Positions 20,853 to 42,080 of a stretch of DNA of 64,000 nucleotides are shown in pieces (within the stretch, counting starts at the first letter, position 1; every line of letters begins with the position of its first letter). The translations under genes were made by a program, and so were the position numbers. Origin of the DNA: an uncultured Eubacteriales bacterium (GTDB lineage Bacteria > Bacillota > Clostridia > TANB77 > CAG-508); assembly GCA_949288185.1 (NCBI GenBank), contig CASEIZ010000024.1, positions 74,303 through 138,302 on the forward strand, read 5' to 3'. Under the pieces are notes generated by a model. That model was not told where the DNA came from. It did no database searches and saw only the letters and a program-made list of their open reading frames with translations.

Positions 20853-22238
20853 ATGGGAGAAAATAAAATGTGTGAAAATATGTTAGATAAAATAGAAATT
20901 AAAAAAATAGAAAAAGAACAATTTGAAGAGTATAAAGATGAAATAGAAAAAATACATAGTGAAAACGTATTTCCAAATAACGGTTATTTAATGGATGAAG
21001 ATTATATCACAAATGCAGAATTTATTTTTGTTGCCGTATCTAACGATAAAGTCGTAGGTTATGCTTCTATAAATACATATGATTATGAACCAGATGAAGG
21101 TGATGACATATGGATAACGATAGAAAAAAATAATATTCAAATTAAACAGATTGTTATAAGTAAAGAATTTCAAGGATTAAAAATAGGAACATACTTATTA
21201 AATAAAGTAAAAGAATATGCAAAAAGTAAAGATATAAAAAATATTTATTTATATGCTTTAGGTGATAATGAAAAAGCTCATAAGTTTTATGAAAGAAATG
21301 GTTTTAAATTATCTGGTATTTGGAGTGCAAAAGAGTATATGGGAATAAAAGATTTTAAAAGCTATCTTTTTGCATATACAAATAAAATGGAATGTAAAGC
21401 AATATTTTTAGATATGGATGGCACATTATTAAATTCTGAAAAAGAAGTATCAGATTATTCAATTAAGATTTTACAAAAAATAAAACAAAAAGGAATAGAA
21501 ATAATCTTAATATCAGGAAGATGTAATAAATCAATTGAGCATATTGTGAAAAATAGAATAAATAATAAAAATGAGATAATTAGATATATTATTTCAACAG
21601 ACGGAACAATGATAAAAGATTTGAAAGAAAACAAAATAATATATCAAAGTAGTTTAAATGAAAAAATGGTAAAAGAGTTAATATATAAATCATATGATTT
21701 TGATACGTCTTTTTATATAATAACTGAAAATAACATGTATAAAGATAATAGAATGAATAAATATCAAACAGAAATTGATAAATGGTATATAAATGGTGAA
21801 TTTTATAATATAGAAGATAATCTAAAAACTATTGACTTTAATAATTTTAGTAAACTAAATGAAAAAGTTAATCGAATATTATTCTTTTCCATGAACTTTG
21901 ATGAATTAAAAGAAATTAATGAAAATATTTTAAAAAATGATGAAATTCAAACATTGTTTAGAAAAGATTATAAGGATTTTAAATTATTGCTAATTTCAAA
22001 TAAATATTCTAAAGCAAAGGGAATAATTGAGATGTGTAAATGTCTAAACATAGCAGTAAAAGATACAATAGCATTTGGCGATTCAGATAATGATATTGAA
22101 ATGCTAAAAATAGCAGGAGAAGGTATTGCAATGAAAAATGCAAAAATAGATTTAAAAACAAATAAAGTTACAGAATTTACTAATAATGAAGATGGTGTAG
22201 CAAAGTATTTAGAAAAGATGTTATTGGAGGAAAAGTAA
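20853..22238 (+). CDS. fusion protein: GNAT N-acetyltransferase + Cof-type HAD phosphatase
   Basis: GNAT motif A FQGLKIGTYLL. From about aa 180, AIFLDMDGTLLNSEKEVS ... GDSDNDIEMLK are HAD motifs I and IV of the Cof subfamily. Confidence 0.8.
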   Translation: MGENKMCENMLDKIEIKKIEKEQFEEYKDEIEKIHSENVFPNNGYLMDEDYITNAEFIFVAVSNDKVVGYASINTYDYEPDEGDDIWITIEKNNIQIKQIVISKEFQGLKIGTYLLNKVKEYAKSKDIKNIYLYALGDNEKAHKFYERNGFKLSGIWSAKEYMGIKDFKSYLFAYTNKMECKAIFLDMDGTLLNSEKEVSDYSIKILQKIKQKGIEIILISGRCNKSIEHIVKNRINNKNEIIRYIISTDGTMIKDLKENKIIYQSSLNEKMVKELIYKSYDFDTSFYIITENNMYKDNRMNKYQTEIDKWYINGEFYNIEDNLKTIDFNNFSKLNEKVNRILFFSMNFDELKEINENILKNDEIQTLFRKDYKDFKLLLISNKYSKAKGIIEMCKCLNIAVKDTIAFGDSDNDIEMLKIAGEGIAMKNAKIDLKTNKVTEFTNNEDGVAKYLEKMLLEEK

Positions 22239-23455
22239 TGAATATAGGAATAGATATAGATGGTGTCTTAACAGATATTGAGCAATGGCAATTAGATTAT
22301 GGAAGTAAAGTTGTATTTGAAAAATACCAGAAAGGAATTATAAACCCAGAAGGATATGATGTAACAGAAATATTTGATGTAGACAAAAATTTAGATGATG
22401 AATTTTGGAGAAAATATTTATATGATTATGCTAAAAATGAACCAGCAAGAAAATTTGCAAATGAAGTAACAAAAAAATTAAGTAATGATGGAAATAAAGT
22501 ATATATTATAACTGCAAGATTTTTAACTGATAGAGATACAGCTGAAGGTCAAAAGATGAGAGAAATAGTAAGAAATTGGTTAAAAGAAAATGAAATTTAC
22601 TATGATGAAATTATATTTAGTCCAGATGATAAATTAGAAATATGCTTAAATAATAATATTGATGTGATGATAGATGATAAAGTAGAAAATATAAATGAAA
22701 TATCAAAACATATACCAGTAATATGCTTTAATGCAGGATATAACAAAGAATGTAAAGGGGAAAATATTTATAGAGCTTATTCTTGGTATGATGTATATAA
22801 TAAGATAAAAGAAATAGAAAACAAAAATAAAATCGTTATATTCGATTGGGGAGGTGTTATAGAGAGTCATAAAGAAGGAGAATATTCAATAGATAGAGCC
22901 ATAATAAACCTTATTAAACATTTTAATAGTAAAGAAGATGAAAAAACGATAGTAGAAAGATACCATGCTCAATCAGTAGAAGATATAACATACCATATCT
23001 ATTTAGAAAATGATAAATGGTTTGAAAAAATAAAAAAAGAATTTAATTTAAAATGTAATTCAGAGGAATTTTACGATTATTACATAAAAGAATTTGATAA
23101 AATTGATTATTACAAAGATGTAGTAGAATTTGCTCATAGCTTAAAAGATAAATGCAAGATAGCTATTTTATCAAATCTTGGATCATTAGATAAGCAAAGA
23201 TTAAATAAACAAGTAGATTTAAAAGAGTTTGATTATGTATGGCTTTCATTTGAATTGAACTGTCGTAAACCAAAAGAGAAAATTTATGAAATAGTAGAAA
23301 AAGAATGTAAGATAGAGCCTAAAAACATTCTATTTATAGATGACAGCAAAGAAAATATTGAAGTAGCAAAAAACAGAGGTTGGAATACTTGTTTAGCAAC
23401 AGGACACGAGCTAGATAAAATAAGAGAAAAAGTGAATAAATTTTTAAACAAATAA
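22238..23455 (+). CDS. two-domain HAD protein: NT5C-like 5'(3')-deoxyribonucleotidase + HAD-IA hydrolase
   Basis: MNIGIDIDGVLTD, GNKVYIITAR and IDVMIDD (NT5C-like). Then IVIFDWGGVIES ... FIDDSKENIEVAKNRGW (HAD-IA). Confidence 0.75.
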   Translation: MNIGIDIDGVLTDIEQWQLDYGSKVVFEKYQKGIINPEGYDVTEIFDVDKNLDDEFWRKYLYDYAKNEPARKFANEVTKKLSNDGNKVYIITARFLTDRDTAEGQKMREIVRNWLKENEIYYDEIIFSPDDKLEICLNNNIDVMIDDKVENINEISKHIPVICFNAGYNKECKGENIYRAYSWYDVYNKIKEIENKNKIVIFDWGGVIESHKEGEYSIDRAIINLIKHFNSKEDEKTIVERYHAQSVEDITYHIYLENDKWFEKIKKEFNLKCNSEEFYDYYIKEFDKIDYYKDVVEFAHSLKDKCKIAILSNLGSLDKQRLNKQVDLKEFDYVWLSFELNCRKPKEKIYEIVEKECKIEPKNILFIDDSKENIEVAKNRGWNTCLATGHELDKIREKVNKFLNK

Positions 23456-23463
23456 TAAGATTT

Positions 23464-24648
23464 ATGACAATATTTATGATAGCAAAGAAATATGATAGAG
23501 TTAAAAAATGGGAGGACAAACTATTGAATGTAATTTTTCTAGATATAGATGGTGTTTTAAATAGTCCAAATTATATAAAAAAATATAAAGAGATGAAAAC
23601 AAGAAAAGGAAGAATATATAAAAATATTGATGATAATGCACTTAATTATCTTAAAGAACTTCAAAATAGATATGATGCTAAAATTGTTCTAACTTCCACT
23701 TGGCGTAAGTGGCGTAACCGTATATCAATAGATAAATTTAAAAAATCTATTAAAGAAAACCCAATTACAGAAGATGAAAGAACAGAAGATTATGCAAATT
23801 TAAGAACATTATATGAAAAATTAAGATTAGAATATGATTTGGATTTGGACGACATGACTGATGATTTGCAGAATAGAATGTTAGAAATACAACTATACTT
23901 ATTGCTTCATAAAGAAATAGAAAAATTTGTCATTTTAGATGATGATGATGAACATTTTTCTGAAATCTTTAAAGAACAATTTGTTCAATGTTGTGCGAAA
24001 GGAGAAGCTTTTGGAGAAAAAGAATTTGAACAAGCCTGTACCAGCTTTAACCAGCAAGAAAGATATATTCCAAATATAGAAGGATTAAAAGAATTACAAG
24101 ACTATTTTGATAAATTAACACAAGCTTACAAAGTTAAGGCAGAGTCACTTTATAGTTCAATCTTAAAAGAAGATTTTGAAGGGGGTTCATTTGATGTATC
24201 TGGTATGCAATATAAAAGATTATATTATTATTTGCCAGATGAAATTAAAGCTCAAGTAGATATAGATTCTTGGAAAAATGGAAGAATTATAACTAATAAC
24301 CAAAGAACCTTTGAGAAAGCTATTATAAATAATGAAGATTATTTTTCTAGTCTAATGTTATTAGAAGCTGGTTCAGATTCTTTACCATTATATAGTATTG
24401 TATTAGAACAAATGGAAATAGATGAGAAAGAAGAAATGCAAATGATGCAAGATTTGATTTCTAAATTATCTGAAGAACAAAAGATGAAATTATTACAATC
24501 AGCTAGACAAAAATATGAAGAACTACAAGAAAATAATTTACACGGCTCTATAAAGAACATAAGAGAGGTTATTCAATATTTGTTTCATGTAGATATTTCA
24601 AAAATACAAATAGATAAAGAGAGTGACTTAGATAAAGAGTTGTATTAG
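23464..24648 (+). CDS. HAD-like domain protein (RNA-repair 'Swiss-army-knife' type HAD) with uncharacterised C-terminal 250 aa
   Basis: VIFLDIDGVLNSPNY...AKIVLTSTWR. The true start may be TTG 23524, 8 nt after GGGAGG. Confidence 0.6.
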   Translation: MTIFMIAKKYDRVKKWEDKLLNVIFLDIDGVLNSPNYIKKYKEMKTRKGRIYKNIDDNALNYLKELQNRYDAKIVLTSTWRKWRNRISIDKFKKSIKENPITEDERTEDYANLRTLYEKLRLEYDLDLDDMTDDLQNRMLEIQLYLLLHKEIEKFVILDDDDEHFSEIFKEQFVQCCAKGEAFGEKEFEQACTSFNQQERYIPNIEGLKELQDYFDKLTQAYKVKAESLYSSILKEDFEGGSFDVSGMQYKRLYYYLPDEIKAQVDIDSWKNGRIITNNQRTFEKAIINNEDYFSSLMLLEAGSDSLPLYSIVLEQMEIDEKEEMQMMQDLISKLSEEQKMKLLQSARQKYEELQENNLHGSIKNIREVIQYLFHVDISKIQIDKESDLDKELY

Positions 24649-24656
24649 ATTAATAG

Positions 24657-24797
24657 TATGATATAAAAATTCAAAAAGTAAATCATTACAATATAGAAAG
24701 TTATGGGTATATTATAAATAATGAATTAACAGATATATCTATGTTAGCAACAGGACATGAATTAGATAAAATAAAAAGTAGTATAAATGAATTTTAA
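24657..24797 (+). pseudogene. chimeric gene scar: MBL-gene fragment fused to 3' end of a HAD-IA paralog
   Basis: 24657-24728 matches 25210-25281 at 68 of 72 nt. 24729-24743 equals 25351-25365 (15 of 15). 24744-24797 encodes LATGHELDKIKSSINEF*, compared with LATGHELDKIREKVNKFLNK* at 23393-23455. Confidence 0.8.
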
Positions 24798-24822
24798 AAT
24801 TTGAAATAAATAGGGGAAAACA

Positions 24823-25536
24823 ATGAAAGTAAGATTATTAGGAACAGGAGCAATATATTCAAAATATAATTGTGCAAGTGAGTTAATAGATGACAAAATA
24901 TTAGTGGATGCAGGAAATGGTGTACTAAAAGAATTAAGAAAAATTAATTATGATTTAACAAAATTAGAAATGATAATTATTACACATCTTCATGCAGACC
25001 ATTATGCAGATTTACCTGCACTAATATTGAATTTAGAAGTAGAGGGAAATTTAAAACCAATATATATTGCTGGACCAAAAGAATTAAAAGAAAACTTAAC
25101 AGCATTGTGTCATATATATTATCAAGATTTTTTTGATAAGTTTTTTGAAGAAAAGATAAAATTCATAGAAATATTGCCAGAAACAAAAGCAATAGAAGTG
25201 TTAAATGATTATGATATAAAAATTCAAAAAGTAAATCATTATAATATAGAAAGCTATGGATATATTATAAATAATAAATTAGGTATTACAGGAGATACTT
25301 GTCTATGTAAAGAAGTATTAAATATATTTGAAAATAGTGAAATTGTAATAACAGATATATCTATGATTGAAGGTACAAATTATCACATGGGAATTGATGA
25401 TATAGAAACAATAAGGAAAACATATAAAAATAAAATGATAGCTACCCATTTAAGAGATGATACAAGGGAAGAATTAAAGAAAAAATGCTTAAAAGATGTA
25501 ATCATAAAAGAAGATGGGGTAGAGATGATAATATAA
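24823..25536 (+). CDS. small metallo-beta-lactamase-fold hydrolase (RNase Z / phosphodiesterase-like)
   Basis: ITHLHADHYADLP (HxHxDH), a later GDT, and IATHL near the C-terminus. 237 aa. Confidence 0.8.
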   Translation: MKVRLLGTGAIYSKYNCASELIDDKILVDAGNGVLKELRKINYDLTKLEMIIITHLHADHYADLPALILNLEVEGNLKPIYIAGPKELKENLTALCHIYYQDFFDKFFEEKIKFIEILPETKAIEVLNDYDIKIQKVNHYNIESYGYIINNKLGITGDTCLCKEVLNIFENSEIVITDISMIEGTNYHMGIDDIETIRKTYKNKMIATHLRDDTREELKKKCLKDVIIKEDGVEMII

Positions 25537-25553: not shown

Positions 25554-26030
25554 ATGGTTTTAGAAGATATTAAAATTATTAATTTATTAGATGATATAGA
25601 GTCTTTAGAAGAGGTTTCAGAATGGATATATGAAGAATGGGAGAAAAAATATAATAGAAAATTGGAAGATATAATTTATCGTTCCAAACATTCTTTAAAT
25701 AGAGATGATATTCCTCAAATGTATATTGCAAAATATGATGATGAAGTAGTAGGATGTGTTTCCATTTGGAGATGTGACTTAAAATCAAGACAAGATTTAT
25801 ACCCATGGATGGCAGCATTATTTATAAAGAAAGAATATAGAAATCAAGGGATAGGTAAATTATTGCAAGAAAAAGTAATAGAAGAAACAAGAAAGATGAA
25901 CTATAAAAACATATATTTAATAACAGAACATGAAAATTATTATGAAAAAACAGGATGGAAATTTTTAGAAAAAGCACCTTTGGAAAATGGTAGTTATACT
26001 AAAATATACAAATATGATTTAATGAAATAA
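25554..26030 (+). CDS. GNAT family N-acetyltransferase
   Basis: Motif A YRNQGIGKLLQ. 158 aa. Confidence 0.8.
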   Translation: MVLEDIKIINLLDDIESLEEVSEWIYEEWEKKYNRKLEDIIYRSKHSLNRDDIPQMYIAKYDDEVVGCVSIWRCDLKSRQDLYPWMAALFIKKEYRNQGIGKLLQEKVIEETRKMNYKNIYLITEHENYYEKTGWKFLEKAPLENGSYTKIYKYDLMK

Positions 26031-26097
26031 TAGATTATGATAAAAATGAACTTATAATTTAATAAGCAAAAACATAAAATATTAGATATATAATTAA

Positions 26098-26235
26098 ATT
26101 GAAAAAAAGTGGCATAAATGGCAAAAAAATTCAATGATTTATATATTTGATGAGCCAACTTCAAATATAGACCTAAAAACGGAGAACAGAATTCAAAAAT
26201 TAGTAGATAGAATTACAAAAGAAAGTACAATTTGA
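26098..26235 (+). pseudogene. 3' remnant of an ABC-transporter ATPase gene
   Basis: Open frame reads ...MIYIFDEPTSNIDLKTENRIQKLVDRITKESTI* (Walker B / D-loop region) with no upstream Walker A or signature motif. Confidence 0.6.
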
Positions 26236-26316
26236 AATATTATGTAAAATATGCTATACTTTAATATGAATTACATATAAATCTTGGACTATTGGGCTAT
26301 CTATAGGAGGATTTTT

Positions 26317-26766
26317 ATGGATGTAAAAACATTACTGGATGTTATAAAAGAATATAATTCTCATGAAGAAGAAATCTTTGATAATGCTACTGATATATTC
26401 ATCTCAAAGGTTCGGATTGAATTTGAAAAGATGTATAGAAATCAGGAATGGACAAAGATGATAGGTGTTTCAGAACTTGGTATTTTCATAACAGAATTAA
26501 GTGATGACTTTCAAAATGTTGAATTTAGAATTTCACCATATATTTCTGGAAGAAACGGAAAAGAATATGAGGAAGAGTATTATAATGATCCACCTTTTAC
26601 AAAATATCTTGAAAGGAAGATGTATTTGGGTGATGAACTATTTGGTTTTCAAGATGAAGATATTCTCGCCTTAAAACCTTACTGTGAATCACTAGAAAGA
26701 AAAGGTTTTGGTTGCTATGTTAGCACAGGCAACAGAGAACTAGTTGTAACAATAAAAATTATTTGA
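26317..26766 (+). CDS. hypothetical protein
   Basis: ATG 6 nt after GGAGGA. 149 aa. No motif. Confidence 0.55.
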   Translation: MDVKTLLDVIKEYNSHEEEIFDNATDIFISKVRIEFEKMYRNQEWTKMIGVSELGIFITELSDDFQNVEFRISPYISGRNGKEYEEEYYNDPPFTKYLERKMYLGDELFGFQDEDILALKPYCESLERKGFGCYVSTGNRELVVTIKII

Positions 26767-26798
26767 TTTTAAAGCCCAAGATATGTTCAAGGCAAAGG

Positions 26799-26826
26799 AG
26801 ATTGCGATTTTTTGCAATCTTTTTTG
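26799..26826 (+). terminator. rho-independent terminator ending the first enzyme operon
   Basis: AGATTGC gattttt GCAATCT followed by T6. Confidence 0.65.
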
Positions 26827-26856
26827 TTATCATTTTTATCTAATGAAAAGGAAGAG

Positions 26857-27042
26857 TCAAAGCTCTTCCTTTTTCATAATCTCTGGACAATTATACATAT
26901 CAAATGCTTCTTTTGAAGTAAGATTATACTTATTTGAACCTGAAGCAATTATTTGTTTCATATGTTCAGCAAATCTTTTTTCATAATCGCTATCACGTCC
27001 TTGTACTACTATTTCAGAGATATTAAAATGTCTTTTTGCCAT
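26857..27042 (-). CDS. hypothetical small protein (only minus-strand gene in the island)
   Basis: 61-aa ORF with AAGGAGG RBS on the minus strand. Its 3' end sits in hairpin AAAGGAAGAG/CTCTTCCTTT. Confidence 0.5.
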   Translation of the reverse strand: MAKRHFNISEIVVQGRDSDYEKRFAEHMKQIIASGSNKYNLTSKEAFDMYNCPEIMKKEEL

Positions 27043-27275
27043 AATGTGCCTCCTTAATAATAAATGCTTGATTAATAGTTATTGATATTATGCCCAGAAA
27101 TTTTGCAACCAAGATGTAATTGTTTCTTGGAATTAAAATTTATTCAAACTTAATTGTACCATGATTTTTAAAGTTAGTCAAAAATATAAGTTGTTATTAA
27201 CTTGAAATAATGAGCATTGAAAAGTTTTTATTATTATGATAATATGTGAAAGAATATAAATTTAAGGAGAAAAAG

Positions 27276-28205
27276 ATGTTAAAAGCATATAGCATAATAA
27301 AAAATTTAGATAAAAAGGCATGTGAAATAATTAGAAATAATGGAATACAATTAGATATTTCAAATTCAGACAAAAGACCAGATAAAGAAGGATTGATTAA
27401 ATTATTAGATGAATATGATATCCTTATAATCGGAATAGAAGATAAGTTCACAAAAGATATGTTACCAATAACGACAAAGAAAAAGATAATAGCAACATTA
27501 TCTATTGGTTTAGACCATATAGATAGAGCTTTTTTAGAAAATGATAATATAAAAATAATTAACTGCCAAAATTCAAACGTAGTATCAGTTGCAGAGCATA
27601 TATTTGCATTAATACTAGCGTTAAAGAAAAGAATTTTAGAAGCAAATGATATTTCATTAAAAGGTGAAAACAGAAGAAAATTATCTATGAGAAGTAACGA
27701 TATAACTAGTAGTACACTTGGAATCATTGGTGCTGGTAAAATTTCTCGTGAAGTAATTAGAATTTCAAAAGCATTTAATATGAATATTATTTCCAATACA
27801 TTAAATCCAGAACTACATGAAGATTTAATGAAACAAGGAGTCAAATTCGTATCTTTAGATGAAGTATTATCAAATGCTGATATTATAACAATTAACATAC
27901 CATTAAATGAAGAAAATAGAAATATTATATCTAAAGAAAAAATTAGATTAATGAAAAAAACAACAACATTTATAAATACTTCAAGAGGAGAACTTGTAGA
28001 TATGAATGAATTAATAAATTATGCTGATGAAAATAAGACATTTAATGTTGGATTAGATATAGATGCTGAAAATTATAAAGATATTTTAAGTATAAAAAGA
28101 AATAATGTAATTGTAACACCTCACATAGCTGGAGTAACAAAGGAAGCAGTAGAAAGAATGGATGTAGAAGTGGCAAATAGATTAGTCGAATACATTAAAA
28201 AGTAA
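27276..28205 (+). CDS. D-isomer-specific 2-hydroxyacid dehydrogenase family protein
   Basis: GIIGAGKISREV (GxGxxG), TSRGELVD, PHIAG. ATG follows AAGGAGA. Confidence 0.85.
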   Translation: MLKAYSIIKNLDKKACEIIRNNGIQLDISNSDKRPDKEGLIKLLDEYDILIIGIEDKFTKDMLPITTKKKIIATLSIGLDHIDRAFLENDNIKIINCQNSNVVSVAEHIFALILALKKRILEANDISLKGENRRKLSMRSNDITSSTLGIIGAGKISREVIRISKAFNMNIISNTLNPELHEDLMKQGVKFVSLDEVLSNADIITINIPLNEENRNIISKEKIRLMKKTTTFINTSRGELVDMNELINYADENKTFNVGLDIDAENYKDILSIKRNNVIVTPHIAGVTKEAVERMDVEVANRLVEYIKK

Positions 28206-28222: not shown

Positions 28223-28828
28223 ATGAATATAAAGGAAATGCAACAAGCAGTAAAAATATTAGGCGAAGAATGGAATTTAGGAAAAAAAGAATCAGGAGCT
28301 GAAGGAAATATATGTGCTTGGATTTATTTAATGGAGATACTAGAAGAGAGTGAAAAGATTATTACATATAAAGAAAATGGTGAACTTGTAGGATTTTGTG
28401 GATATGCTAAATGGAATTCAAAAAATCATTTAATAAGAAAAAAATTATCAAAAATAATAAAAAATAGATTAATGAATAGTAAAAAGATAAAAAATAAAAA
28501 TGCAATAAAAAAGTATGATGAAAATTATGGATATTATGCACCAAAAGAAATAGAAAAGAAATTTGATGGAGAAATATCTATATTAATTGTAAAAAAAGAA
28601 TATCAAAATAAAGGTATAGGAACAAAGTTATTATTAGAAGTATTTAAACTTGCAAAAGAAGACGGATTAAAGAAAATTCAAATACTAACAGATGAATCTT
28701 GCAATCATGAGTTTTATGAGAAATGCAATTGTAAAATTGTATATGAAACTAAAATACAAAACATAGAAAGCAATATTGTTGGAAATAAGAAATTTGAAAA
28801 AGCATATGTGTATCAAAAAATACTATAA
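28223..28828 (+). CDS. GNAT family N-acetyltransferase
   Basis: Motif A YQNKGIGTKLL. Confidence 0.75.
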   Translation: MNIKEMQQAVKILGEEWNLGKKESGAEGNICAWIYLMEILEESEKIITYKENGELVGFCGYAKWNSKNHLIRKKLSKIIKNRLMNSKKIKNKNAIKKYDENYGYYAPKEIEKKFDGEISILIVKKEYQNKGIGTKLLLEVFKLAKEDGLKKIQILTDESCNHEFYEKCNCKIVYETKIQNIESNIVGNKKFEKAYVYQKIL

Positions 28829-33221: not shown

Positions 33222-33824
33222 ATGAATACCAAAAGATTTAGATATCAACAAAGAGATTTTCATTTAAAAGAAATAGACAACTTAACAAATATAGATTGGA
33301 ATTTAGAAAAGTATGGTTGTGGACCAACATCTATTGCTAATGTATTAAAAAATTATGGATTTGACGTTAATCCAATAGATATGGCTAAAAAAATATTATT
33401 TGATAGTGATGGAAATTTTGATACTACATATTTACGAAACAAAGGAATCAATGATAGAGGTTTGATATATTGCCTAGAAAGACTAATAAAAGAAGATAAA
33501 TTCAATATCTCATATGATATTGTAAAAATAGATTTTTCAAATCCTAACAATCAAAAACAAAAAGTAATTGATTTAATGAAGCAAGGGAACATGGCAATAA
33601 TTCATGTAGGACCATCAGAAATAAGTCCATTAACTTTTTCTAAAAATGGTCATTATTTAGTAATTAGTGATATTGATAGTGATAATAATTTTTATGTTAT
33701 CAATTCTAATGAAATAGGAGATAATCAATTAGGTGTTCCATTTGATTATGATACAATTATTAAAAATATGACAGGAAGAAAAGACTCTTTCAATTTTTTA
33801 TTTATAAAAAAATTAGATAAATAA
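33222..33824 (+). CDS. papain-fold cysteine peptidase, C39-like
   Basis: GCGPTSIANVL catalytic-Cys block and a later GHYLVI His block. Confidence 0.55.
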   Translation: MNTKRFRYQQRDFHLKEIDNLTNIDWNLEKYGCGPTSIANVLKNYGFDVNPIDMAKKILFDSDGNFDTTYLRNKGINDRGLIYCLERLIKEDKFNISYDIVKIDFSNPNNQKQKVIDLMKQGNMAIIHVGPSEISPLTFSKNGHYLVISDIDSDNNFYVINSNEIGDNQLGVPFDYDTIIKNMTGRKDSFNFLFIKKLDK

Positions 33825-33858: not shown

Positions 33859-35298
33859 ATGCGAATTGGAATAGATATAGATAATTGCATATCAAATTTT
33901 GATGATGTATTATTAGAAGAATATTTAAAACACGATAAAGAATTAAGAAATACAGGAATTATAAATGACAAGCCATATCATATAACAGTCGGAATGTTTG
34001 ATTGGTCAAAAGAGGAAAATGACGACTTTTATTACAATAACATACAAAGAATAGCAATGAGTTTAAAGCCATTAAATAATGCAAAGGAAGTAATAGACAA
34101 ATTAAAAGCAGATGGAAATGAAATCTATATCATAACATCTAGAGATAATGGAGAATATATAAACCCAGAGAAAATGACAAGAGAATGGCTAGAAAAATAT
34201 GATATATATTTTGATAAATTAATCCTTACTGGAAGACACGAAAAAGGACCTGCGTGTAAAGAAAACAATATAGACATTATGATAGAAGATAGCATAAAAA
34301 ATTGCGAAGATATAGAGAATAACGGTGTAAAATGCTATATAATGAATACGAGATATAACCAAGAAGAAACAAGGTTTGAAAGAGTGAAAAGGTGGGATGA
34401 AATATATTCAAAAATTTCTAAACTATATAAAAAAGAAGAACATAAAGAAAGAATAAATGTTATATTAGACACAGATACATATAATGAATGTGATGATCAG
34501 TTCGCTTTATCATATATGCTTTTATCACAAGATAGATTTAATATAGAAGCTATTACAGTAGCACCATATCACCATGATAATGATATTAGTATAGAAGAAG
34601 GACAAGAAAAGAGTTATCAAGAAATATTAAAAATTTGTAATTGGCTAAATTTTGATGCAAAAAATAAAGTATTTAAAGGTAGCAATGGTTATATAGAAAA
34701 TGGATATAATGAAACAAATGGAGCAATAGAAAAAATAGTAGAGATTGCAAGAAAAAACGAAAAAACATATATTATGGCAATTGGAGCAATCACAAATATT
34801 ACATTGGCTATTAAGAAAGATCCAGATATTATAAATAAAATTAAAATTGTTTGGCTTGGAGGACACAGCCCAATATGTGATAACAATAAAGAATTTAATT
34901 TTAGACAAGACGTACAAGCAATAAAGGAAATCTTTGAATCAAAAGTAGACTTAACAATCATTCCTTGTAAAGGTATCGCATCTAACTTAAAAATATCAAT
35001 ATATGAATTAGAACATTATTTAAAAGGAAAAAATGAACTTTGCAATTATTTATTTGGCAGATTTTATGATGATGGGATACATGGAATTCAAACAAGAAGG
35101 GTAATTTGGGATATAAGTGTTGTAGCTTATTTAATTAATAAAGATTGGTTTGAAGAAAAAGAAATGGATTGCCCAGAAATTAATAAAGATTTAAGTTATA
35201 GTTTTAATAAAAATAATAGAAAAATAAAATTTATAACTTATTTAAATTCAGATGATATATATAAAGATTTATTTGATAAATTAGTAGAAAAAGGATAG
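33859..35298 (+). CDS. fusion protein: NT5C-like nucleotidase + inosine/uridine-preferring nucleoside hydrolase
   Basis: MRIGIDIDNCISN, GNEIYIITSRD, IDIMIED. Then VILDTDTYNECDDQFAL (the DxDxxxDD motif of the IUNH family). Confidence 0.8.
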   Translation: MRIGIDIDNCISNFDDVLLEEYLKHDKELRNTGIINDKPYHITVGMFDWSKEENDDFYYNNIQRIAMSLKPLNNAKEVIDKLKADGNEIYIITSRDNGEYINPEKMTREWLEKYDIYFDKLILTGRHEKGPACKENNIDIMIEDSIKNCEDIENNGVKCYIMNTRYNQEETRFERVKRWDEIYSKISKLYKKEEHKERINVILDTDTYNECDDQFALSYMLLSQDRFNIEAITVAPYHHDNDISIEEGQEKSYQEILKICNWLNFDAKNKVFKGSNGYIENGYNETNGAIEKIVEIARKNEKTYIMAIGAITNITLAIKKDPDIINKIKIVWLGGHSPICDNNKEFNFRQDVQAIKEIFESKVDLTIIPCKGIASNLKISIYELEHYLKGKNELCNYLFGRFYDDGIHGIQTRRVIWDISVVAYLINKDWFEEKEMDCPEINKDLSYSFNKNNRKIKFITYLNSDDIYKDLFDKLVEKG

Positions 35299-35300: not shown

Positions 35301-36176
35301 ATGGAAGAAAAAGATTTGTTAATAGAAAAAGATAATATAGAAAAGGCATTAACATTTTATAATATAAATATAGAAGATTATAAGGATAAATGTTATAAAT
35401 GTTTAGATAACATTAATAAAAATAGTGAATTGAAGAACAAAATAAATTATGCACTAAAATTCTTATATAGTAATGAAAGCGAACAGTTAGAATTATTATG
35501 GAAAGAAAGTAATTTGAATAAATTTTTAGGAGAATCCTATAATAAATTCATTCATAACATAATACTTTTGTCAGGTTATAAAATACATGAAGAAAATATG
35601 AGTAAATATAACTTTGATACATACCAAGTTTTAGCACATAAAAACAGAGTTAGAGAATGTTTAACAAATGATATATATAATCAAAAACTAGAAGGAATTA
35701 GATTATCTCAAACTTTATGGGGAATATATTTTATAAATATAAGATTAATAGAAGTTGGAAGATTGCAGTATGAATATTGTAATAATAAAAAAGGAAAATA
35801 TATTAAAATTCATATACCAAAAGGAGATAAACTACTTTATAATGAAGTATTGAATTCCATAAAAAATTCTAAAAAAGAAATAAAGAAATACTTTGAAATA
35901 GAAAATTACGAATATTATTGTGAATCATGGCTATTGAGTAAAGATATAACGAAACTATTAGATGTCAATTCAAATATTGCTAAATTCCAGCAACTATTTG
36001 ATATAATTGAAGGAAAGGATGCTACTAAAGACATTATAAATTTTGTTTTTGGATTGCAACAAATAGATAGTTATTACGATTTGCCAGAAAAAACAAGTTT
36101 GCAATCAAAAATTAAAGATTTATTGATTAACGGAAAAGAAATTCACATTGGAATAGGAAAATTAAAGAAAATATAG
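35301..36176 (+). CDS. hypothetical protein, possibly GNAT-like acyltransferase C-terminal domain
   Basis: VGRLQYEY...IKIHIPKGDKL...CESWLLS...SNIAKFQQLF resembles the acyltransferase-domain proteins of Clostridia. Tentative. Confidence 0.4.
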   Translation: MEEKDLLIEKDNIEKALTFYNINIEDYKDKCYKCLDNINKNSELKNKINYALKFLYSNESEQLELLWKESNLNKFLGESYNKFIHNIILLSGYKIHEENMSKYNFDTYQVLAHKNRVRECLTNDIYNQKLEGIRLSQTLWGIYFINIRLIEVGRLQYEYCNNKKGKYIKIHIPKGDKLLYNEVLNSIKNSKKEIKKYFEIENYEYYCESWLLSKDITKLLDVNSNIAKFQQLFDIIEGKDATKDIINFVFGLQQIDSYYDLPEKTSLQSKIKDLLINGKEIHIGIGKLKKI

Positions 36177-36192
36177 AAAAAGGATAATTAAT

Positions 36193-36720
36193 ATGAAAAT
36201 ATATGTAATTAGACATGGAGAAACAGAAAGTAATTCCAAAAATATCGTTGGAGAAATTAAAGAAGATTTAAACGAAAATGGTATTAAACAAGCAGATAAA
36301 GCTAGTGAAAAAATAGCGAATTTGAATATAGATTTGATTATTTGTTCTCCAGCAGATAGAACTAAACACACTTGCAATATTATAAATAAAAATAATGTTC
36401 CAGTTATATTTGATGAAAGGCTAATCGAAAGAGATGTGGGTATTTATGAAAATAAAGATTGGAATAATATAGATAGAAAAGCATTTTGGAATTACTATTC
36501 TACAAAATATACAGGATTAGAAACAATGAAAAGTGTATATAAAAGAGTTGCAGAATGTTTAGATGAAGTAAAAGGAAAATATAAAGATAAAACAATTTTA
36601 TTAGTAACACATGGAGGGACATTAAGAGCTATCTATTGGTATTTTAATGGAATACCTGAAGATGGAAATGTTGGTTATGATATGCACTCAAATTGCGAGA
36701 TAAAAGAATATGAATGGTAG
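36193..36720 (+). CDS. histidine phosphatase family protein (phosphoglycerate-mutase-like)
   Basis: IYVIRHGETESN (RHG motif) and LLVTHGG near the C-terminus. Confidence 0.85.
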   Translation: MKIYVIRHGETESNSKNIVGEIKEDLNENGIKQADKASEKIANLNIDLIICSPADRTKHTCNIINKNNVPVIFDERLIERDVGIYENKDWNNIDRKAFWNYYSTKYTGLETMKSVYKRVAECLDEVKGKYKDKTILLVTHGGTLRAIYWYFNGIPEDGNVGYDMHSNCEIKEYEW

Positions 36721-36730
36721 GAAATAGTAA

Positions 36731-37318
36731 ATGGAAGAACTAAAAATAGATTATAAATTCAATTTAGAAGATTTTGAAAAAATGGAAGATATCGAACATT
36801 CATATTTCCCAAATGAAAATATAACACCAGCTGAAGAAGTATTAAAGTGGTATGAAAAGAATAGTTTAACTTGTATAGGTGTTAGGAACAGTAATAATGA
36901 AGTAGTTGCAAATGTTAATATACTTCCATTAAATAAAAAAACTTTTTATGATGTTTATGATAATAAGATGAATGAAGCTGATATAGTAGATTCTCAAATA
37001 GAAAAATATGAGAGCAACAAAGAATATTACTTATACTTATCTTCAATATCAATAAACAAAAAATATAGAAATATTTATCGTGTAATAACAACACTATTAA
37101 AAGGATGTATTGATTTATATAAACTACTAATAGATAGAAACATCAAGATAATAAAAATAATGGCAGATGTAAGTACAGAACATGGAGAAAAAGTATGTAA
37201 GAAATTATTGAAAATGGATTATATAAGAGATACAACTCATAATTCTAAAATTTATTGTGCAGATGGTAATAATTTTGTAGAATCGATAAATAGAATTATG
37301 AAATTTTTAGGCAAGTAA
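36731..37318 (+). CDS. hypothetical protein, weak GNAT-like features
   Basis: 195-aa ORF. YLYLSSISINKKYRN at the position of GNAT motif A. Weak. Confidence 0.4.
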   Translation: MEELKIDYKFNLEDFEKMEDIEHSYFPNENITPAEEVLKWYEKNSLTCIGVRNSNNEVVANVNILPLNKKTFYDVYDNKMNEADIVDSQIEKYESNKEYYLYLSSISINKKYRNIYRVITTLLKGCIDLYKLLIDRNIKIIKIMADVSTEHGEKVCKKLLKMDYIRDTTHNSKIYCADGNNFVESINRIMKFLGK

Positions 37319-37335: not shown

Positions 37336-37791
37336 ATGAAAATATTATATACAGCATTTAACGGAAAGGATAATTCATCAAAAATATTATTAGATAAAAT
37401 AATGGCAGAAAATACAAATAAGTTATATTTAAGAAATAGTTTTGATACAAGTGTTAAACAATTGATAAGTAAATTAAAAAAGTACGAAACAATAATTTCG
37501 TTTGGACAAGCTCCATTAGATAAAGATTTAATAAAGATTGAACTTATTGGCAAAAAAGAAAAGGATTTATATAAAACAGATTTTAATTATTCAAAAATAA
37601 AAGAAGATATAGAAAAAACAGGAATTAAAGTAGAAATTTCTGAAGATGCTGGTAATTTTCTATGTAACAATTTATATTATAATGGACTTAAATATATAAG
37701 AGAAAACAATATAAATTGTAAAATGATATTTATACATATTCCAAAAATAGAAGATATAAGCAATATAGAATTGTTAGCAAAAATATTTTAG
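37336..37791 (+). CDS. short pyroglutamyl-peptidase-like (C15) protein
   Basis: EDAGNFLCNNLYY (Cys block) and IFIHIP (His block). At 151 aa it is shorter than typical family members. Confidence 0.6.
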   Translation: MKILYTAFNGKDNSSKILLDKIMAENTNKLYLRNSFDTSVKQLISKLKKYETIISFGQAPLDKDLIKIELIGKKEKDLYKTDFNYSKIKEDIEKTGIKVEISEDAGNFLCNNLYYNGLKYIRENNINCKMIFIHIPKIEDISNIELLAKIF

Positions 37792-37803: not shown

Positions 37804-38412
37804 ATGAAATTAACAAGCAAAGAAACAAAAGATATAGTAGAAAGTTATAGAGGAAAAACACTAACAGATAAATGGATAGACCATTGTATTTGTGTTGGAG
37901 ATACAGCAGGAAAAATTGCTAAAGCATTAGAAGAAAAAGGATATAATATAGATGTAGATAAAACAATAGCAATTGGATATGTTCATGATATTGGAAAATA
38001 TAACGGAGAAATTTATGGTCATGTTATGAGAGGATATAATTATCTAAAAGAAAAAGGTTATGATGAAGATTATTGCAATATTTGCCTAACACATTCATAT
38101 TTAAATAATGATATTATTTGTACTGCTGGAGGAATTCCAGATATAAATGAGAATCCATTTTTAACTAACTTTATAAAAAATCATGAGTATACAATAGAAG
38201 AAAAGATAATAAATTTGTGTGATTTAATGTGTCCACCAGGAGGAAAGGTATATACAATAGATAAAAGATTAATAGACCTAATTTATAGAAAAGGAGCATA
38301 TACAAACACACAATATCATGTAAAAGAAACATATAAATTGAAAGATTATTTTGATAATTTATTAAGATATAATTTATATGATTTATTTCCAGAAATAAAG
38401 GATAATCTATAA
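37804..38412 (+). CDS. HD-domain phosphohydrolase
   Basis: IDHCICVG ... GYVHDIGK (H...HD). Confidence 0.75.
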   Translation: MKLTSKETKDIVESYRGKTLTDKWIDHCICVGDTAGKIAKALEEKGYNIDVDKTIAIGYVHDIGKYNGEIYGHVMRGYNYLKEKGYDEDYCNICLTHSYLNNDIICTAGGIPDINENPFLTNFIKNHEYTIEEKIINLCDLMCPPGGKVYTIDKRLIDLIYRKGAYTNTQYHVKETYKLKDYFDNLLRYNLYDLFPEIKDNL

Positions 38413-38527: not shown

Positions 38528-39676
38528 ATGGGAAGATATGCTTATCGTGGACAAGAAGTCTTATATAGAAATGGTAAATTAGTTGGTTTTAATGCTGGAT
38601 ATGGAGCTCATACTGAACATGAATCACATTATTTAGGATATGAACAAAGAAAGCGAAAAAAATTGATTGATAAAAATAAAAATCATCCATTTAATGGAGA
38701 AATTGTTGAAAATCCTAATGCAGTACAAATGATGGAATTTAATGATGGAAATGTCTGGATAACTAATGATTCTTTGTTTAATTACCAATTAATGCAAAAA
38801 ACAGAAAAAGAAAGAAATGAGATTAAGGAAAAATACTTGCATAATGAAGATAGAAAAAAAACAGAAAAAGTAATGCTTGAATTTGGAGGTAGAGAACTTG
38901 ATGCTCCTGAAGTAGTTGCTTTATGGAATGCAGGTTGTCATGGTGATGGAAACTTTGATTTAATATCAACTACTGAACAAAGTAGTGAGATGTTAAGAAA
39001 ATTATATGAGGAAATGCAAAAAGGAAATGTTGCCATTTCAAGCGATTATAGTTTTATGTTCAAAGACAGAGGTTTATCATTTGTATTGTTAGACCAATTA
39101 ACACAACAAGATTTGATGATGAAAGAATATGTTGATTATAGACAGGAATTAGGTAAAAAATTCCAAAAAGAATACAGAGAGTTTGTTGATGGTGAAGGAT
39201 TAGGAGAATTTGAAGTGAAATATCCAGTAGGATTTTGGAATCTTCAAATTTCTGGATTAAATCAAACCGATAAAGGATTGGTTCCAGAATTTTATTTGGA
39301 ACTATATCATACAAATCATGGAGATTGGGATAATGATAGTTGTCTATTCAATGTACCACGTTATATGTCAGGTGATGAAATTAAGTTTTTAGTACCAATT
39401 GCAAAATCAGAAGAATTTATAACTTTTGCAGATAATCATTCAAAAGAAGAAATAGAAGAATATATAAACACTCAATTAGAGAATTATCATGAACAGCAAA
39501 GATTAGCTCAAGAACAAGAGTATCAAATTGGAGAAGATTCTTTAGATAGTATTGCAGGAGAACAAAGGTCGGAAAATATAGAAAGAAAATCATCTTCATT
39601 AAGAGAAAAAATAAAAAAATGGTTAAATCCAGATAGAGAAAACGATAAAAATAAACCTGATGGAAGAGAGGAATAA
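38528..39676 (+). CDS. hypothetical protein (382 aa)
   Basis: AAAGGA RBS. Long ORF. No motif recognised. Preceded by a 115-nt gap that ends the tight array. Confidence 0.65.
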   Translation: MGRYAYRGQEVLYRNGKLVGFNAGYGAHTEHESHYLGYEQRKRKKLIDKNKNHPFNGEIVENPNAVQMMEFNDGNVWITNDSLFNYQLMQKTEKERNEIKEKYLHNEDRKKTEKVMLEFGGRELDAPEVVALWNAGCHGDGNFDLISTTEQSSEMLRKLYEEMQKGNVAISSDYSFMFKDRGLSFVLLDQLTQQDLMMKEYVDYRQELGKKFQKEYREFVDGEGLGEFEVKYPVGFWNLQISGLNQTDKGLVPEFYLELYHTNHGDWDNDSCLFNVPRYMSGDEIKFLVPIAKSEEFITFADNHSKEEIEEYINTQLENYHEQQRLAQEQEYQIGEDSLDSIAGEQRSENIERKSSSLREKIKKWLNPDRENDKNKPDGREE

Positions 39677-39677
39677 A

Positions 39678-40130
39678 ATGGAAAATGTAGAATATATGAA
39701 TTCCCTATATCAAATAAGTGAAATATTAAAATATATTACGCCACCATTAAAAGCTAGAATACCTAAAAAAATTATCAGCTATATTGAAAGTAATAAATCA
39801 AAAGATTATAATTGGAAAATAGATAAAACATTACCATTAGAAAAGCAAGAATTATTACCTACTACTAAAGAACTTATAACAGTATTATATAAAGATTATA
39901 TGTGTGATGATATATCAAGATTAAAATTAAATAAAGTATTAAATGAAAATCAGATAAAATATGAAAATGAAGTAAGAGAAAAATATAATCCTGATAATAT
40001 TTTTAAAGAGAGAAATAAATCTTATGAAACAAATAAAAGAACAATAGAAAATAATGAAATAGTAAGCTATAAAGAATCATTCTTAAGTAAAATAATAAAT
40101 AAACTAAAATCATTTTTTCATAAACAGTAA
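39678..40130 (+). CDS. hypothetical protein
   Basis: ATG 2 nt after the previous stop. 150 aa. Confidence 0.6.
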   Translation: MENVEYMNSLYQISEILKYITPPLKARIPKKIISYIESNKSKDYNWKIDKTLPLEKQELLPTTKELITVLYKDYMCDDISRLKLNKVLNENQIKYENEVREKYNPDNIFKERNKSYETNKRTIENNEIVSYKESFLSKIINKLKSFFHKQ

Positions 40131-40693: not shown

Positions 40694-40812
40694 TATTGGA
40701 AGTGTGTTAATTGAGGGCAGGGATTAAAAACAAAATCTCTGCTCTTTTCATATATTTGATTTTTTAATAAAAATTGATATAATAAAGAAAATAAAATTAA
40801 GAGGTAATAATA

Positions 40813-41352
40813 ATGGAATCTTTATATGGATTAACATACATACCAGTAGATATGGATAATTTAGAAATAGCATTTAAAATACAAAAAGAAATATGGACAT
40901 CTGATCCAGATTATAACGATTTACTAGATAAAGCTAAAAATAGAGCTGATAATAATTGTTCTTTTTTAATTTATTATGACAATACTTTAATTGGAATAAC
41001 TGGAGTTGACTTTTACAAAGAATATAACGATACGATATGGCTTGACTGGTTTGCAATTTTGCCAGAATTTCGTAGAAAAGGTTATGGTAAGAAAGTATTA
41101 TTAGATACAATTAGATATTGTAAAAATTTAAAAAAATATGATTATTTTAGACTAGATACCACATATTATGAAAATAGACCAGCATTATATTTGTATGATG
41201 ATGTAATGGATTTAAGAGAAGATTATACAGTTGAAGATACAGATACAGTAAAAAACAATTTTATTATATATACATATGGCTTAAATAAAAAAGCTGAATA
41301 CTGGAATAATAAATATTTAGGATTAAGAGAATATTATGATAATTGTAAATAA
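40813..41352 (+). CDS. GNAT family N-acetyltransferase
   Basis: Motif A FRRKGYGKKVL. Confidence 0.8.
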   Translation: MESLYGLTYIPVDMDNLEIAFKIQKEIWTSDPDYNDLLDKAKNRADNNCSFLIYYDNTLIGITGVDFYKEYNDTIWLDWFAILPEFRRKGYGKKVLLDTIRYCKNLKKYDYFRLDTTYYENRPALYLYDDVMDLREDYTVEDTDTVKNNFIIYTYGLNKKAEYWNNKYLGLREYYDNCK

Positions 41353-41375
41353 TAGAAATGGGAGAAATATAAATT

Positions 41376-42080
41376 ATGGAAGATAAGAAAGTAGTAGTAG
41401 GAATAGTTGCAAAACATATAAATAATAATCAATCTAAAATTAATTCTTTAATTCGTGATGAAGTAAAACAAGCAATATTTGATAATGGAGGAATTGTAAT
41501 TGGAATATTATCACCAAATGATGAAATATTATATGCAGGAAACGATTGGAAAGAATATGAAGATAAAATAAGAAAAGAAGAAATAATAGATGAGTTAAAT
41601 TTGTTTGATGGTGTTATTTTGCAAGGTGGGATAACTTGCGAAGCATATGAAAGTTGGATTGCAAAATATTGCTATGATAATAACATTCCTATACTTGGGA
41701 TTTGTGCTGGACAAAATGCAATAGCAAGAAGTCTTGGAGGAACAACTTTTAAAATCAGTAATCCAGAAAAACATGATAAAAGTTTTGATGAATATGTGCA
41801 TAGTATAAAGATTGATAAAGAATCAAAATTTTATTCAATTATTCAAAAAGAAGAAATAATGGTAAATTCAAGACATAAAAATTCAATTAAAGATTGTCCT
41901 GGATTAAATAAAGTAGCATTTTGTGAAGATGGATATGCAGATGTTATTGAAGATCCCAACAAAAATTTCTATATTGGTGTAAGATTTCATCCAGAAAGCT
42001 TGTATAAGAAAGATGAAAATATGAATAATATTTTTAAAGCTTTTCTTGAAGAATGTAAAAAACAAAGTAGGGGTAATTAA
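41376..42080 (+). CDS. class I glutamine amidotransferase-like / gamma-glutamyl hydrolase (peptidase C26) family protein
   Basis: LGICAGQN nucleophile elbow and VRFHPE His-Glu block. Confidence 0.8.
   Translation: MEDKKVVVGIVAKHINNNQSKINSLIRDEVKQAIFDNGGIVIGILSPNDEILYAGNDWKEYEDKIRKEEIIDELNLFDGVILQGGITCEAYESWIAKYCYDNNIPILGICAGQNAIARSLGGTTFKISNPEKHDKSFDEYVHSIKIDKESKFYSIIQKEEIMVNSRHKNSIKDCPGLNKVAFCEDGYADVIEDPNKNFYIGVRFHPESLYKKDENMNNIFKAFLEECKKQSRGN

Follow-up and report, generated by a model that had tools for sequence, protein, structure and literature searches.

The DNA analysed here is a stretch of 64,000 nucleotides (nt) of contig CASEIZ010000024.1 (positions 74,303 to 138,302 of the forward strand), hereafter the window, and its subject is an array of small enzyme genes at window positions 20853–42080. 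The evidence tips modestly toward regarding this array as a clade-specific, strain-variable accessory cluster situated upstream of the peroxiredoxin gene prx in uncultured, very low-GC gut Firmicutes, with the mobile elements now found around it inserted separately. A sequence-only reading had described the region as a tightly packed, same-strand array of 21 kb, and so it is: 26 open reading frames (ORFs) of at least 95 amino acids (aa) all lie on the plus strand and leave the region 91.6% coding. The tight packing likewise stands, 18 of the 25 junctions falling between −17 and +45 nt, but the accompanying estimate of about 30 genes and only three breaks does not, since 26 were found and the remaining seven junctions are gaps of 115–479 nt (174 nt at 24649–24822, 253 nt at 26031–26283, 479 nt at 26767–27245, and a further 153, 115, 119 and 251 nt). 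A same-strand run is unremarkable alone, as nearly all genes from 1 to 49 kb lie on the plus strand and GC skew is positive throughout the window, the GC content of which is about 25%; nor does a co-directional run flanked by recombinases justify a cargo reading without comparative evidence. A phosphohydrolase or GNAT domain occurs in 16 of the 26 array ORFs, as against none of some 50 ORFs scanned elsewhere in the window (Fisher p = 5e-10).

Profile searches did not overturn the family calls of the sequence-only reading, nearly all of which were confirmed by Pfam. Three NT5C-type HAD domains were recovered as called, whereas the proposed total of seven HADs came down to six domains in five proteins. 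With genes denoted by their start positions, five canonical GNAT domains (in the N-terminal half of 20853, and in 25554, 28223, 30724 and 40813) are joined by one GNAT_C domain (35301), and Pfam also backs Nudix, metallophosphoesterase, metallo-beta-lactamase-fold (MBL), His_Phos_1, HD, IU_nuc_hydro and 2-hydroxyacid dehydrogenase families, the peptidase/amidase families Peptidase_C39_2, Peptidase_C15 (partial) and Peptidase_C26/GATase, and an HTH_3 regulator. The MFS transporter and P-loop kinase-like calls proved weak, the former scoring below the Pfam cut-off and the latter consisting of a glycine-rich N-terminus and a weak KTI12 match, and three array ORFs have no family. Unusual fusions had been noted, and they are present (GNAT–Hydrolase_3 and NT5C–IU_nuc_hydro among them). 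Catalytic motifs are intact in the array translations (HAD DxD, Nudix box, RHG, HxHxDH, HD, GDxxxD...GNHD and the nucleoside hydrolase aspartate motif DTDxxxxxDD), indicating that these are working genes and not debris. The array reads as follows, related loci here and below being cited by L numbers.

20792–20837, plus strand: conserved non-coding stretch ahead of array gene 20853, putative array promoter
20853–22238, plus strand: GNAT plus Cof-type HAD (Hydrolase_3) fusion (Pfam)
22238–23455, plus strand: NT5C-like HAD plus HAD_2 two-domain phosphatase (Pfam; homology)
23464–24648, plus strand: HAD_SAK_2 phosphatase domain with an uncharacterised C-terminal half (Pfam)
24823–25536, plus strand: short MBL-fold hydrolase (Pfam, NCBIfam)
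25554–26030, plus strand: GNAT acetyltransferase (Pfam; PDB sequence match)
26284–26766, plus strand: 160-aa protein, family unassigned
26791–26828: terminator-like hairpin after the 160-aa ORF, ending the first sub-operon
27246–28205, plus strand: D-isomer-specific 2-hydroxyacid dehydrogenase (Pfam)
28223–28828, plus strand: GNAT acetyltransferase (Pfam)
28856–30091, plus strand: multi-pass membrane protein, weakly MFS-like (Pfam, 30.6 bits against a cut-off of 33.4)
30088–30678, plus strand: P-loop NTPase or kinase-like protein, a weak call
30724–31170, plus strand: GNAT acetyltransferase (Pfam; PDB sequence match)
31324–31929, plus strand: NT5C-like HAD phosphatase (Pfam)
31932–32375, plus strand: Nudix hydrolase (Pfam)
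32372–33184, plus strand: calcineurin-like metallophosphoesterase (Pfam)
33222–33824, plus strand: Peptidase_C39_2-like cysteine peptidase (Pfam)
33859–35298, plus strand: NT5C 5'-nucleotidase plus inosine-uridine nucleoside hydrolase fusion, the clade-wide anchor gene (Pfam)
35301–36176, plus strand: GNAT_C-type acyltransferase, distant kin of the teicoplanin acyltransferase Tcp24
36193–36720, plus strand: histidine phosphatase (branch 1), part of the conserved core (Pfam His_Phos_1)
36731–37318, plus strand: 195-aa protein with no Pfam match, 82–85% in close relatives
37336–37791, plus strand: short pyroglutamyl-peptidase (C15)-like protein, partial profile match (Pfam)
37804–38412, plus strand: HD/HDIG phosphohydrolase, part of the conserved core (Pfam)
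38528–40130, plus strand: two overlapping ORFs of 382 and 156 aa, family unassigned, 85–97% in L152
40250–40561, plus strand: HTH_3 (XRE-type) regulator (Pfam)
40813–41352, plus strand: GNAT acetyltransferase (Pfam; PDB sequence match)
41376–42080, plus strand: Peptidase_C26 / class-I glutamine amidotransferase-like gamma-glutamyl hydrolase, the last array gene (Pfam)

The N-terminal half of the 22238 product was recognised as NT5C-like by homology to the NT5C genes of L001 and L149. The fusion encoded at 33859 scores 86.8 bits for IU_nuc_hydro (cut-off 34.2) over residues 201–437, its translation containing the motif DTDTYNECDD, while its RihA/B/C equivalog scores in NCBIfam are far under their cut-offs. 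The MBL protein resembles RNase Z and cyclic-nucleotide phosphodiesterases but lies far under every specific cut-off, with 48.5 bits against 400 for the NCBIfam cyclic-nucleotide-degrading phosphodiesterase. A promoter-consensus scan was uninformative in so AT-rich a window (147 sites against 174 expected), and the window gave no matches in tRNA and Rfam scans.

Linkage in relatives had been set beforehand as the test of the sequence-only reading, and because sub-blocks of the array are linked in about 130 related loci, a refutation by scattered, unlinked genes fails. Relatives of the anchor fusion were collected at 55 metagenome loci and 79 loci of species-representative genomes (31–92% identity in this collection, up to 97% over the about 130 related loci taken together), nearly all of them labelled uncultured Clostridia, Clostridium sp. 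or Bacilli and originating from human, chicken, rabbit, goat or sheep gut; a protein search with the fusion returned more than 4,600 homologues. When the window proteins were mapped onto these loci, a His_Phos and/or HD hydrolase followed the fusion in most of those that extend far enough downstream. The closest loci (L152, L011, L063, L065, L127, L064, L012) share many further array genes at 80–99% protein identity, in differing combinations and orders. For six more distant loci the content was taken from a pooled Pfam scan of 150 ORFs, since single-sequence phmmer searches with array proteins underestimate GNATs and HADs; the scan gave NT5C 9, Nudix 5, MFS 5, GNAT 4, HAD 4, HD 4, His_Phos 3, C26 2 and GNAT_C 2, plus ABC transporters. 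Judged by the families shared among the mapped and the six distant loci, the core is conserved across genera, and the dense 20-kb form is confined to nearer relatives. Three fusion-bearing contigs (L086, L106 and L129, 45–61% identity) are binned as Methanobacteriaceae, Alphaproteobacteria and Muribaculaceae; these odd labels are likely binning errors, transfer being possible. An exact-sequence look-up returned no record for the fusion protein, nor for the long-form recombinase ORF or the 201-aa ORF of the modules to the right of the array.

Arrays of the same kind also stand apart from any recombinase. In L149–151 an array of about 11 kb (MBL, NT5C, a 394-aa protein, His_Phos, C26, the NT5C–inosine-uridine nucleoside hydrolase fusion, GNAT_C, Hydrolase_3, HD and NT5C) has an ABC transporter on one side and, on the other, a sigma/anti-sigma pair, a two-component system and a second ABC transporter. 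Neither a recombinase nor a phage gene occurs within 10 kb of it, and this arrangement recurs across many samples. The L149–151 contigs span 0.15–0.64 Mb, and an identical protein is found on a 1.6-Mb contig of one relative, which hints at small genomes in the array clade. In L127 and L064 the array leads directly to a full-length prx region that retains a promoter of its own, and no recombinase separates the two. Here the array genes are 81–94% (L127) and 86–91% (L064) identical to the window at the nucleotide level (about 70% in the case of one HD paralogue that was replaced), as compared with 85–94% for prx and the downstream flank, so that array and chromosome are about equally diverged in both loci. 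L001 has a right chromosomal flank 99.3% identical to that of the window and an intact prx (229 aa); at the corresponding place upstream of it lie two Hydrolase_3 genes and an NT5C gene, behind a non-coding stretch which precedes the NT5C gene and is 88% identical to window 20781–20841.

Read as an accessory cluster, the array would comprise a few co-directional operons (predicted starts near 20792–20837 and near 27.2, 31.3, 38.5 and 40.8 kb, predicted stop at 26791–26828) of small enzymes, probably working independently and not as one machine, and the lack of obvious signal peptides in its proteins suggests that they act in the cytosol. The anchor fusion, together with His_Phos and/or HD hydrolases, may convert nucleoside monophosphates to nucleosides and these in turn to free base and ribose, the joining of a nucleotidase to a nucleoside hydrolase implying consecutive steps. 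The range of phosphoesters fed into this route or cleared could be widened by the His_Phos, HD, Nudix, metallophosphoesterase, MBL and extra HAD proteins, while the GNATs, amidases and dehydrogenase would act on other small molecules. The set of genes around the core would change between lineages through acquisition, loss and exchange of whole genes, encoding further phosphatases, MBL, Nudix and metallophosphoesterase proteins, GNATs, transporters and amidases, with the probable outcome of a strain-specific turnover of nucleotides, nucleosides and sugar phosphates and acyl modification of small molecules.

How such turnover may proceed is visible among close relatives, which share array genes at 87–97% nucleotide identity and differ in content and order by whole-gene insertions, deletions and replacements. 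The ends of shared blocks coincide with gene starts or stops (33858, 35276–35297, 36179–36181, 36720–36737, 37305, 37804, 38412, 40746–40777, 41352 and 42068). A 13-nt direct repeat, TAGAAAAAGGATA, located in ribosome-binding regions, brackets the GNAT_C gene (35285–35297 and 36174–36186); in L065 and L079 this gene is precisely absent and a single degenerate repeat copy, TAGTAAAGGATA, is left, a pattern that suggests whole-gene loss or gain via short-homology recombination. The gene scars that had been reported earlier are real, and besides a serine recombinase end described below they consist of the following MBL, HAD and ABC-transporter remnants.

24657–24728, plus strand: 94% copy of an internal piece of the MBL gene
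24744–24799, plus strand: 77% copy of the 3' end of the 22238 gene
26137–26232, plus strand: last 32 codons of an ABC-transporter gene, between the GNAT gene and the 160-aa ORF

At the corresponding position L127, L152, L104 and L068 have the ABC-transporter gene intact, and the scar, 88–91% identical to the intact L127 and L152 genes, is the joint of two sub-arrays. Block ends, the GNAT_C repeat and the scars together point to turnover by whole-gene units, the probable routes being short-homology events and homologous recombination at neighbouring genes that both partners share, with selection acting as a filter. A repeat search found neither attC-like repeats nor any inverted- or direct-repeat family between array genes. 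Taken a step further, the same pattern allows a speculative and rather improbable reading, in which the array would be a dedicated, clade-wide and rapidly diversifying small-molecule disarmament locus whose promoterless enzyme genes serve as cassettes gained and lost by short-homology recombination at ribosome-binding regions; such a locus would act in an integron-like manner without attC or IntI, its enzymes being selected for destroying or modifying nucleotide-derived toxins or signals of competitors, phages or the host.

Under the accessory-cluster reading, this strain would have received three separate invaders, namely a phage-like element of about 22 kb inserted just upstream of the array promoter, a tyrosine-recombinase module, and a partly deleted serine-recombinase element integrated in the active-site codons of prx, and these elements, along with homologous and short-homology recombination, would account for the mosaic structure and the scars. 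That the array sits between a phage-like module and recombinases had been recognised correctly. The left-hand element has the following extent.

1–20782, plus strand: phage-like element of about 22.2 kb, starting about 1.4 kb left of the window (L155 5076–6472), from Pfam, PHROGs and sister contigs L155–L162
20746–20782, plus strand: intrinsic-terminator-like hairpin, right end of the element

Its genes encode a sigma/anti-sigma pair (the window holding the C-terminal part of the anti-sigma), a Spo0A_C-like response regulator, an HTH protein, a phiC31 gp3-like recombination directionality factor (RDF, 3538), ERF, an SbcC-like protein, SSB, a primase-like zinc-ribbon protein and a nucleotidyltransferase, and no integrase of its own. 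In sister contigs L155–L160 the terminator of an Exo_endo_phos gene is followed by the phage-like element of about 22.2 kb; in L065 a GNAT gene and an Exo_endo_phos gene with its terminator are joined directly to the counterpart of the conserved stretch at 20792–20837, after which array genes follow. The sequence TTATATAAAA is present at both junctions of the element. Since L065 lacks the element at that spot, element and array are separable units, and on these alignments the left element is a discrete insertion of about 22 kb, separate from the array. IMG/VR contained no relatives of its SbcC-like and primase-like proteins, nor of the serine recombinase on the right. The element also holds a pair of genes for Amidoligase_2 and a class-II glutamine amidotransferase (GATase_4) at 7589–9098, both weak Pfam matches. 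The nucleotidyltransferase gene (NTP_transf_2, 19269–19631) stands just left of the array here; L065 has a 98% identical copy just past the right end of its array, ahead of a 133-aa ORF, and the two could form a toxin-antitoxin-like pair moving independently.

To the right of the array, homology of the window to L064 ends at 42086, after the last array gene, and the following features lie beyond.

42135–46306, plus strand: recombinase-associated module with three small ORFs, an Xer-like tyrosine recombinase (43446–44330) and 201- and 115-aa ORFs
45737–46306, minus strand: 189-aa ORF of the same module
46396–46890, plus strand: deletion scar, in which a second large serine recombinase survives only as its final 180 nt (46709–46890)
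46891–48606, plus strand: large serine recombinase of 571 aa, true start ATG 46891 (Pfam Resolvase, Recombinase, Zn_ribbon_recom)
48622–48667, plus strand: site A, attP-like, with dyad symmetry and holding the reverse complement of the prx TPVC codons; intact in the window
48798–48815, plus strand: site B, the junction catactgtcacccccgta| between element DNA and the 3' half of prx
48807–49352, plus strand: the 1-Cys peroxiredoxin gene prx without its first 48 codons

Both the tyrosine recombinase and the 189-aa ORF recur at 96–98% protein identity in a different species (L143), in a locus where the 201-aa ORF is absent and outside which the three small ORFs fall. At the deletion scar, L142, L143, L163 and L164 possess an additional 6.3 kb encoding a response regulator, DUF6076, small ORFs and the second serine recombinase. 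Homology to L001 breaks at window 48807, immediately before the peroxidatic TPVC codons, so that prx is split between GDF and TPVC. Site B lies 130 nt beyond site A, the crossover points themselves being 157 nt apart. In L143 site A has recombined with the 5' half of prx in inverse orientation, whereas in the window, L144 and L145 it is site B that is joined to the 3' half, the same end adjoining prx in L163 and L164; in L142, L147 and L148 other DNA adjoins site B. The L142 recombinase is 100% identical to that of the window, and there the element end is joined to non-prx DNA, which is either a second insertion site or the other attP arm of the element. By these junctions the serine-recombinase module is a separate unit with att-like sites, partly deleted in the window, and because site A is intact this recombinase did not make the window's prx junction via site A. 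The 5' half of prx (attL) was not found by tblastn in the window, and it is likewise missing from the 7.5 kb by which sister contigs extend further left. The sequence past prx is ordinary chromosome, with fba, smpB and sua5 followed by genes for a sigma/anti-sigma pair and for a class A PBP.

Several further observations concern this recombinase and its target. The serine recombinase family is found at 93–100% identity across many gut metagenomes beside a broken prx (L142–L148, L163–L167), and the elements of relatives carry two serine recombinases in tandem. Beyond site B, L142 (11926–12706) contains a relatively GC-rich, possibly structured stretch and then a fragment resembling the C-terminus of endonuclease V. 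The prx genes of L127 (16729–17420) and L064 (13597–14282) are full-length as DNA, with 1-nt insertions that shift the frame near codon 35–50 and may reflect pseudogenes or assembly errors. Given both frameshifts and recombinase insertions, prx appears to have been repeatedly inactivated in this clade.

These junctions bear directly on the main alternative, possible though doubtful, namely that the array is cargo of one integrative element of at least 56 kb, integrated in prx and mobilised by the right-end serine recombinase with the left gp3-like factor, the arrays of relatives representing the source of the cargo or its fossils. Such an element would explain why the serine recombinase abuts a split prx with crossover at the same codons in several genomes, why both prx halves are seen at recombinase-side junctions, and why an identical recombinase occurs in L142 with its element end on non-prx DNA; as the 5' half is absent from the window, a simple element of this type must extend past the window's left end. 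A number of findings weigh against the accessory-cluster reading. The gp3-like directionality factor and the serine recombinase bracket the array as they would in a single large element, and in L012 a distantly homologous RDF–ERF–SbcC module stands directly after the array, tying the two together. In the additional 7.5 kb on the left the sister contigs encode MFS, Y-family polymerase plus YolD, GNAT and Exo_endo_phos proteins (L155 266–5033), so that the variable region with its cargo-like genes is larger than 21 kb; the polymerase–YolD pair is typical of mobile elements, and a larger, all-enclosing element may exist. Array GC (0.22–0.26) is slightly under that of the chromosomal flank (0.27–0.30). 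The block from tyrosine to serine recombinase is 92–95% identical at the nucleotide level in L143, the smpB of which is only 73% identical, and at least the right end thus moves horizontally between species. L001, conspecific by its flank, matches the array genes of the window at only 67–76% nucleotide identity. With regard to function, none of the ten non-GNAT array proteins scanned attained an equivalog-level NCBIfam score, and for that reason functional statements on the array stay at the level of families.

Several findings speak against a single large element. By comparison with L065, the module supplying the directionality factor has been inserted precisely, as a 22-kb unit; the attP-like site A is still intact, and the recombinase module is a deletion derivative. 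Arrays free of recombinases lie beside an uninterrupted prx in L127 and L064, where array and flank have diverged about equally, and in a stable chromosomal context in L149–151. Neither Pfam nor PHROGs revealed a capsid, terminase, tail or conjugation gene in 48 kb, only recombination and replication functions being present on the left. A megablast of the array against plasmid and phage records gave no match, and no relatives of the searched sequences were found there or in IMG/VR, apart from a single viral contig (L007, 58% identity to the anchor fusion) with no array around the fusion. The proposal that the array is mobile cargo was right in part: flanking mobile elements and scars are present, but cargo of the flanking modules is not a supported reading, these modules being separate units and similar arrays in L149–151, L127 and L064 lying in recombinase-free chromosomal context. 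With evidence on both sides, the chromosomal accessory cluster is the reading to which we incline, and the single large element is kept as a tentative second.

Two other explanations concern what the array is for. One, which we regard as very improbable, is that it constitutes a counter-defence arsenal, serving the phage-like element next to it by breaking down modified nucleotides or the nucleotide signals of immunity, a role the sequence-only reading had offered as anti-defence cargo. The MBL protein does match Apyc1 weakly (E = 1e-5), Apyc1 is listed in the precomputed Pfam matches of its L149 homologue, the metallophosphoesterase bears a weak likeness to cyclic-nucleotide phosphodiesterases, and the array adjoins a phage-like element. 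That element is, however, an independent insertion, the same gene set is chromosomal and recombinase-free in other species, and RNase Z-type models score higher on the MBL protein than Apyc1 does. Membership in the Apyc1 family was ruled out at 25.6 bits against the PF23023 gathering threshold of 50. A defence island was rejected likewise, as PADLOC run on ten array proteins gave one weak match, of the Nudix protein to the candidate system PDC-S07. To our knowledge, Cof-type HADs, GNATs, 2-hydroxyacid dehydrogenases and C26, C15 and C39 proteins have no link to immune signalling, which also counts against this role. The array is outside every known defence or anti-defence system checked, and no evidence was found for the anti-defence proposal.

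The other explanation, an unlikely one, is a resistance or detoxification island directed at nucleoside-, aminoglycoside- or glycopeptide-like toxins, in which amino groups would be the targets of the GNATs and the Tcp24-like enzyme, phosphatases and kinases would introduce or remove modifications, and transporters would export the products. Besides five GNATs there is the GNAT_C protein with its distant kinship to the teicoplanin acyltransferase; genes for MFS-like proteins and ABC transporters are found within arrays or next to them, and strain-level turnover is consistent with diversifying selection. One GNAT weakly resembles streptothricin/polyamine acetyltransferases (a putative streptothricin acetyltransferase in the PDB, E = 2e-7) and another AAC(6') (E = 5e-4); yet all likenesses to known resistance enzymes are weak (E = 1e-4 to 1e-7) and generic to the GNAT fold, the conserved core is nucleotide-catabolic and not antibiotic-modifying, and the ten non-GNAT array proteins scanned against NCBIfam gave no equivalog-level match. 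Detoxification and salvage, as suggested by the sequence-only reading, remain plausible candidate roles.

If the accessory-cluster reading is true, these poorly known gut Firmicutes keep a dedicated, strain-variable locus for breaking down nucleotides and nucleosides and modifying small molecules, which bears on how these bacteria feed on and detoxify compounds of the gut, and which would provide biochemistry with a source of uncharacterised fusion enzymes. Two side results are possibly worth more, namely serine-recombinase elements that target peroxiredoxin active-site codons in several species, and a phage-like element of 22 kb that lacks an integrase and for which the searched viral collections contained no relatives.

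No described system had been thought to share this composition, and searches of the literature, PADLOC and NCBIfam indeed returned nothing specific to it. Likenesses to known systems are nonetheless instructive. Chromosomal integron arrays are similarly long, tight and co-oriented runs of small accessory genes rich in acetyltransferases, with whole-gene turnover and a tyrosine recombinase at one end. In integrons, each cassette is followed by attC, an imperfect inverted repeat of about 57–141 nt, and IntI, attI and a promoter are proximal, IntI usually being divergent. Here the recombinase is distal, co-oriented and Xer-like, with only generic Phage_integrase and SAM-like domains in Pfam (43446), and the arrays of L127, L064 and L149 have none; an integron cassette array was ruled out, since attC is absent and 18 of the 25 spacers measure −17 to 45 nt. 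With Apyc1 the array MBL protein shares its fold, a similar length and an alignment over most of the profile, but it stands at half the family cut-off and its gene is also found in chromosomal arrays.

Salvage and house-cleaning enzymes include the RihA/B/C nucleoside hydrolases, NT5C/YjjG-type nucleotidases, Nudix proteins and HD nucleotidases, and the same superfamilies, with motifs intact, make up much of the array. In model bacteria such genes are scattered, whereas here they are clustered and strain-variable, and no member reaches the score of a characterised equivalog. SPbeta in spsM and skin in sigK are serine-recombinase elements that split a host gene, and the element at prx resembles them in its large serine recombinase beside a split host gene, its precise and conserved crossover and the gp3-like factor nearby. 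It differs in targeting the peroxidatic-cysteine codons of a peroxiredoxin, in its two att-like sites and in the tandem recombinases of its relatives; the window copy is moreover degraded, with no structural genes and no attL found. Finally, flexible genomic islands and chromosomal integration hotspots are a general concept into which much of the array fits, as it occupies a fixed position upstream of prx, differs in content within a species (the window as compared with L001), changes by whole-gene additions and replacements, and has mobile elements and scars at its edges. Unlike such islands, its content is unusually uniform in kind, consisting of small phosphohydrolases and acyltransferases, and is anchored by a core of NT5C–nucleoside hydrolase, His_Phos and HD proteins kept across genera.

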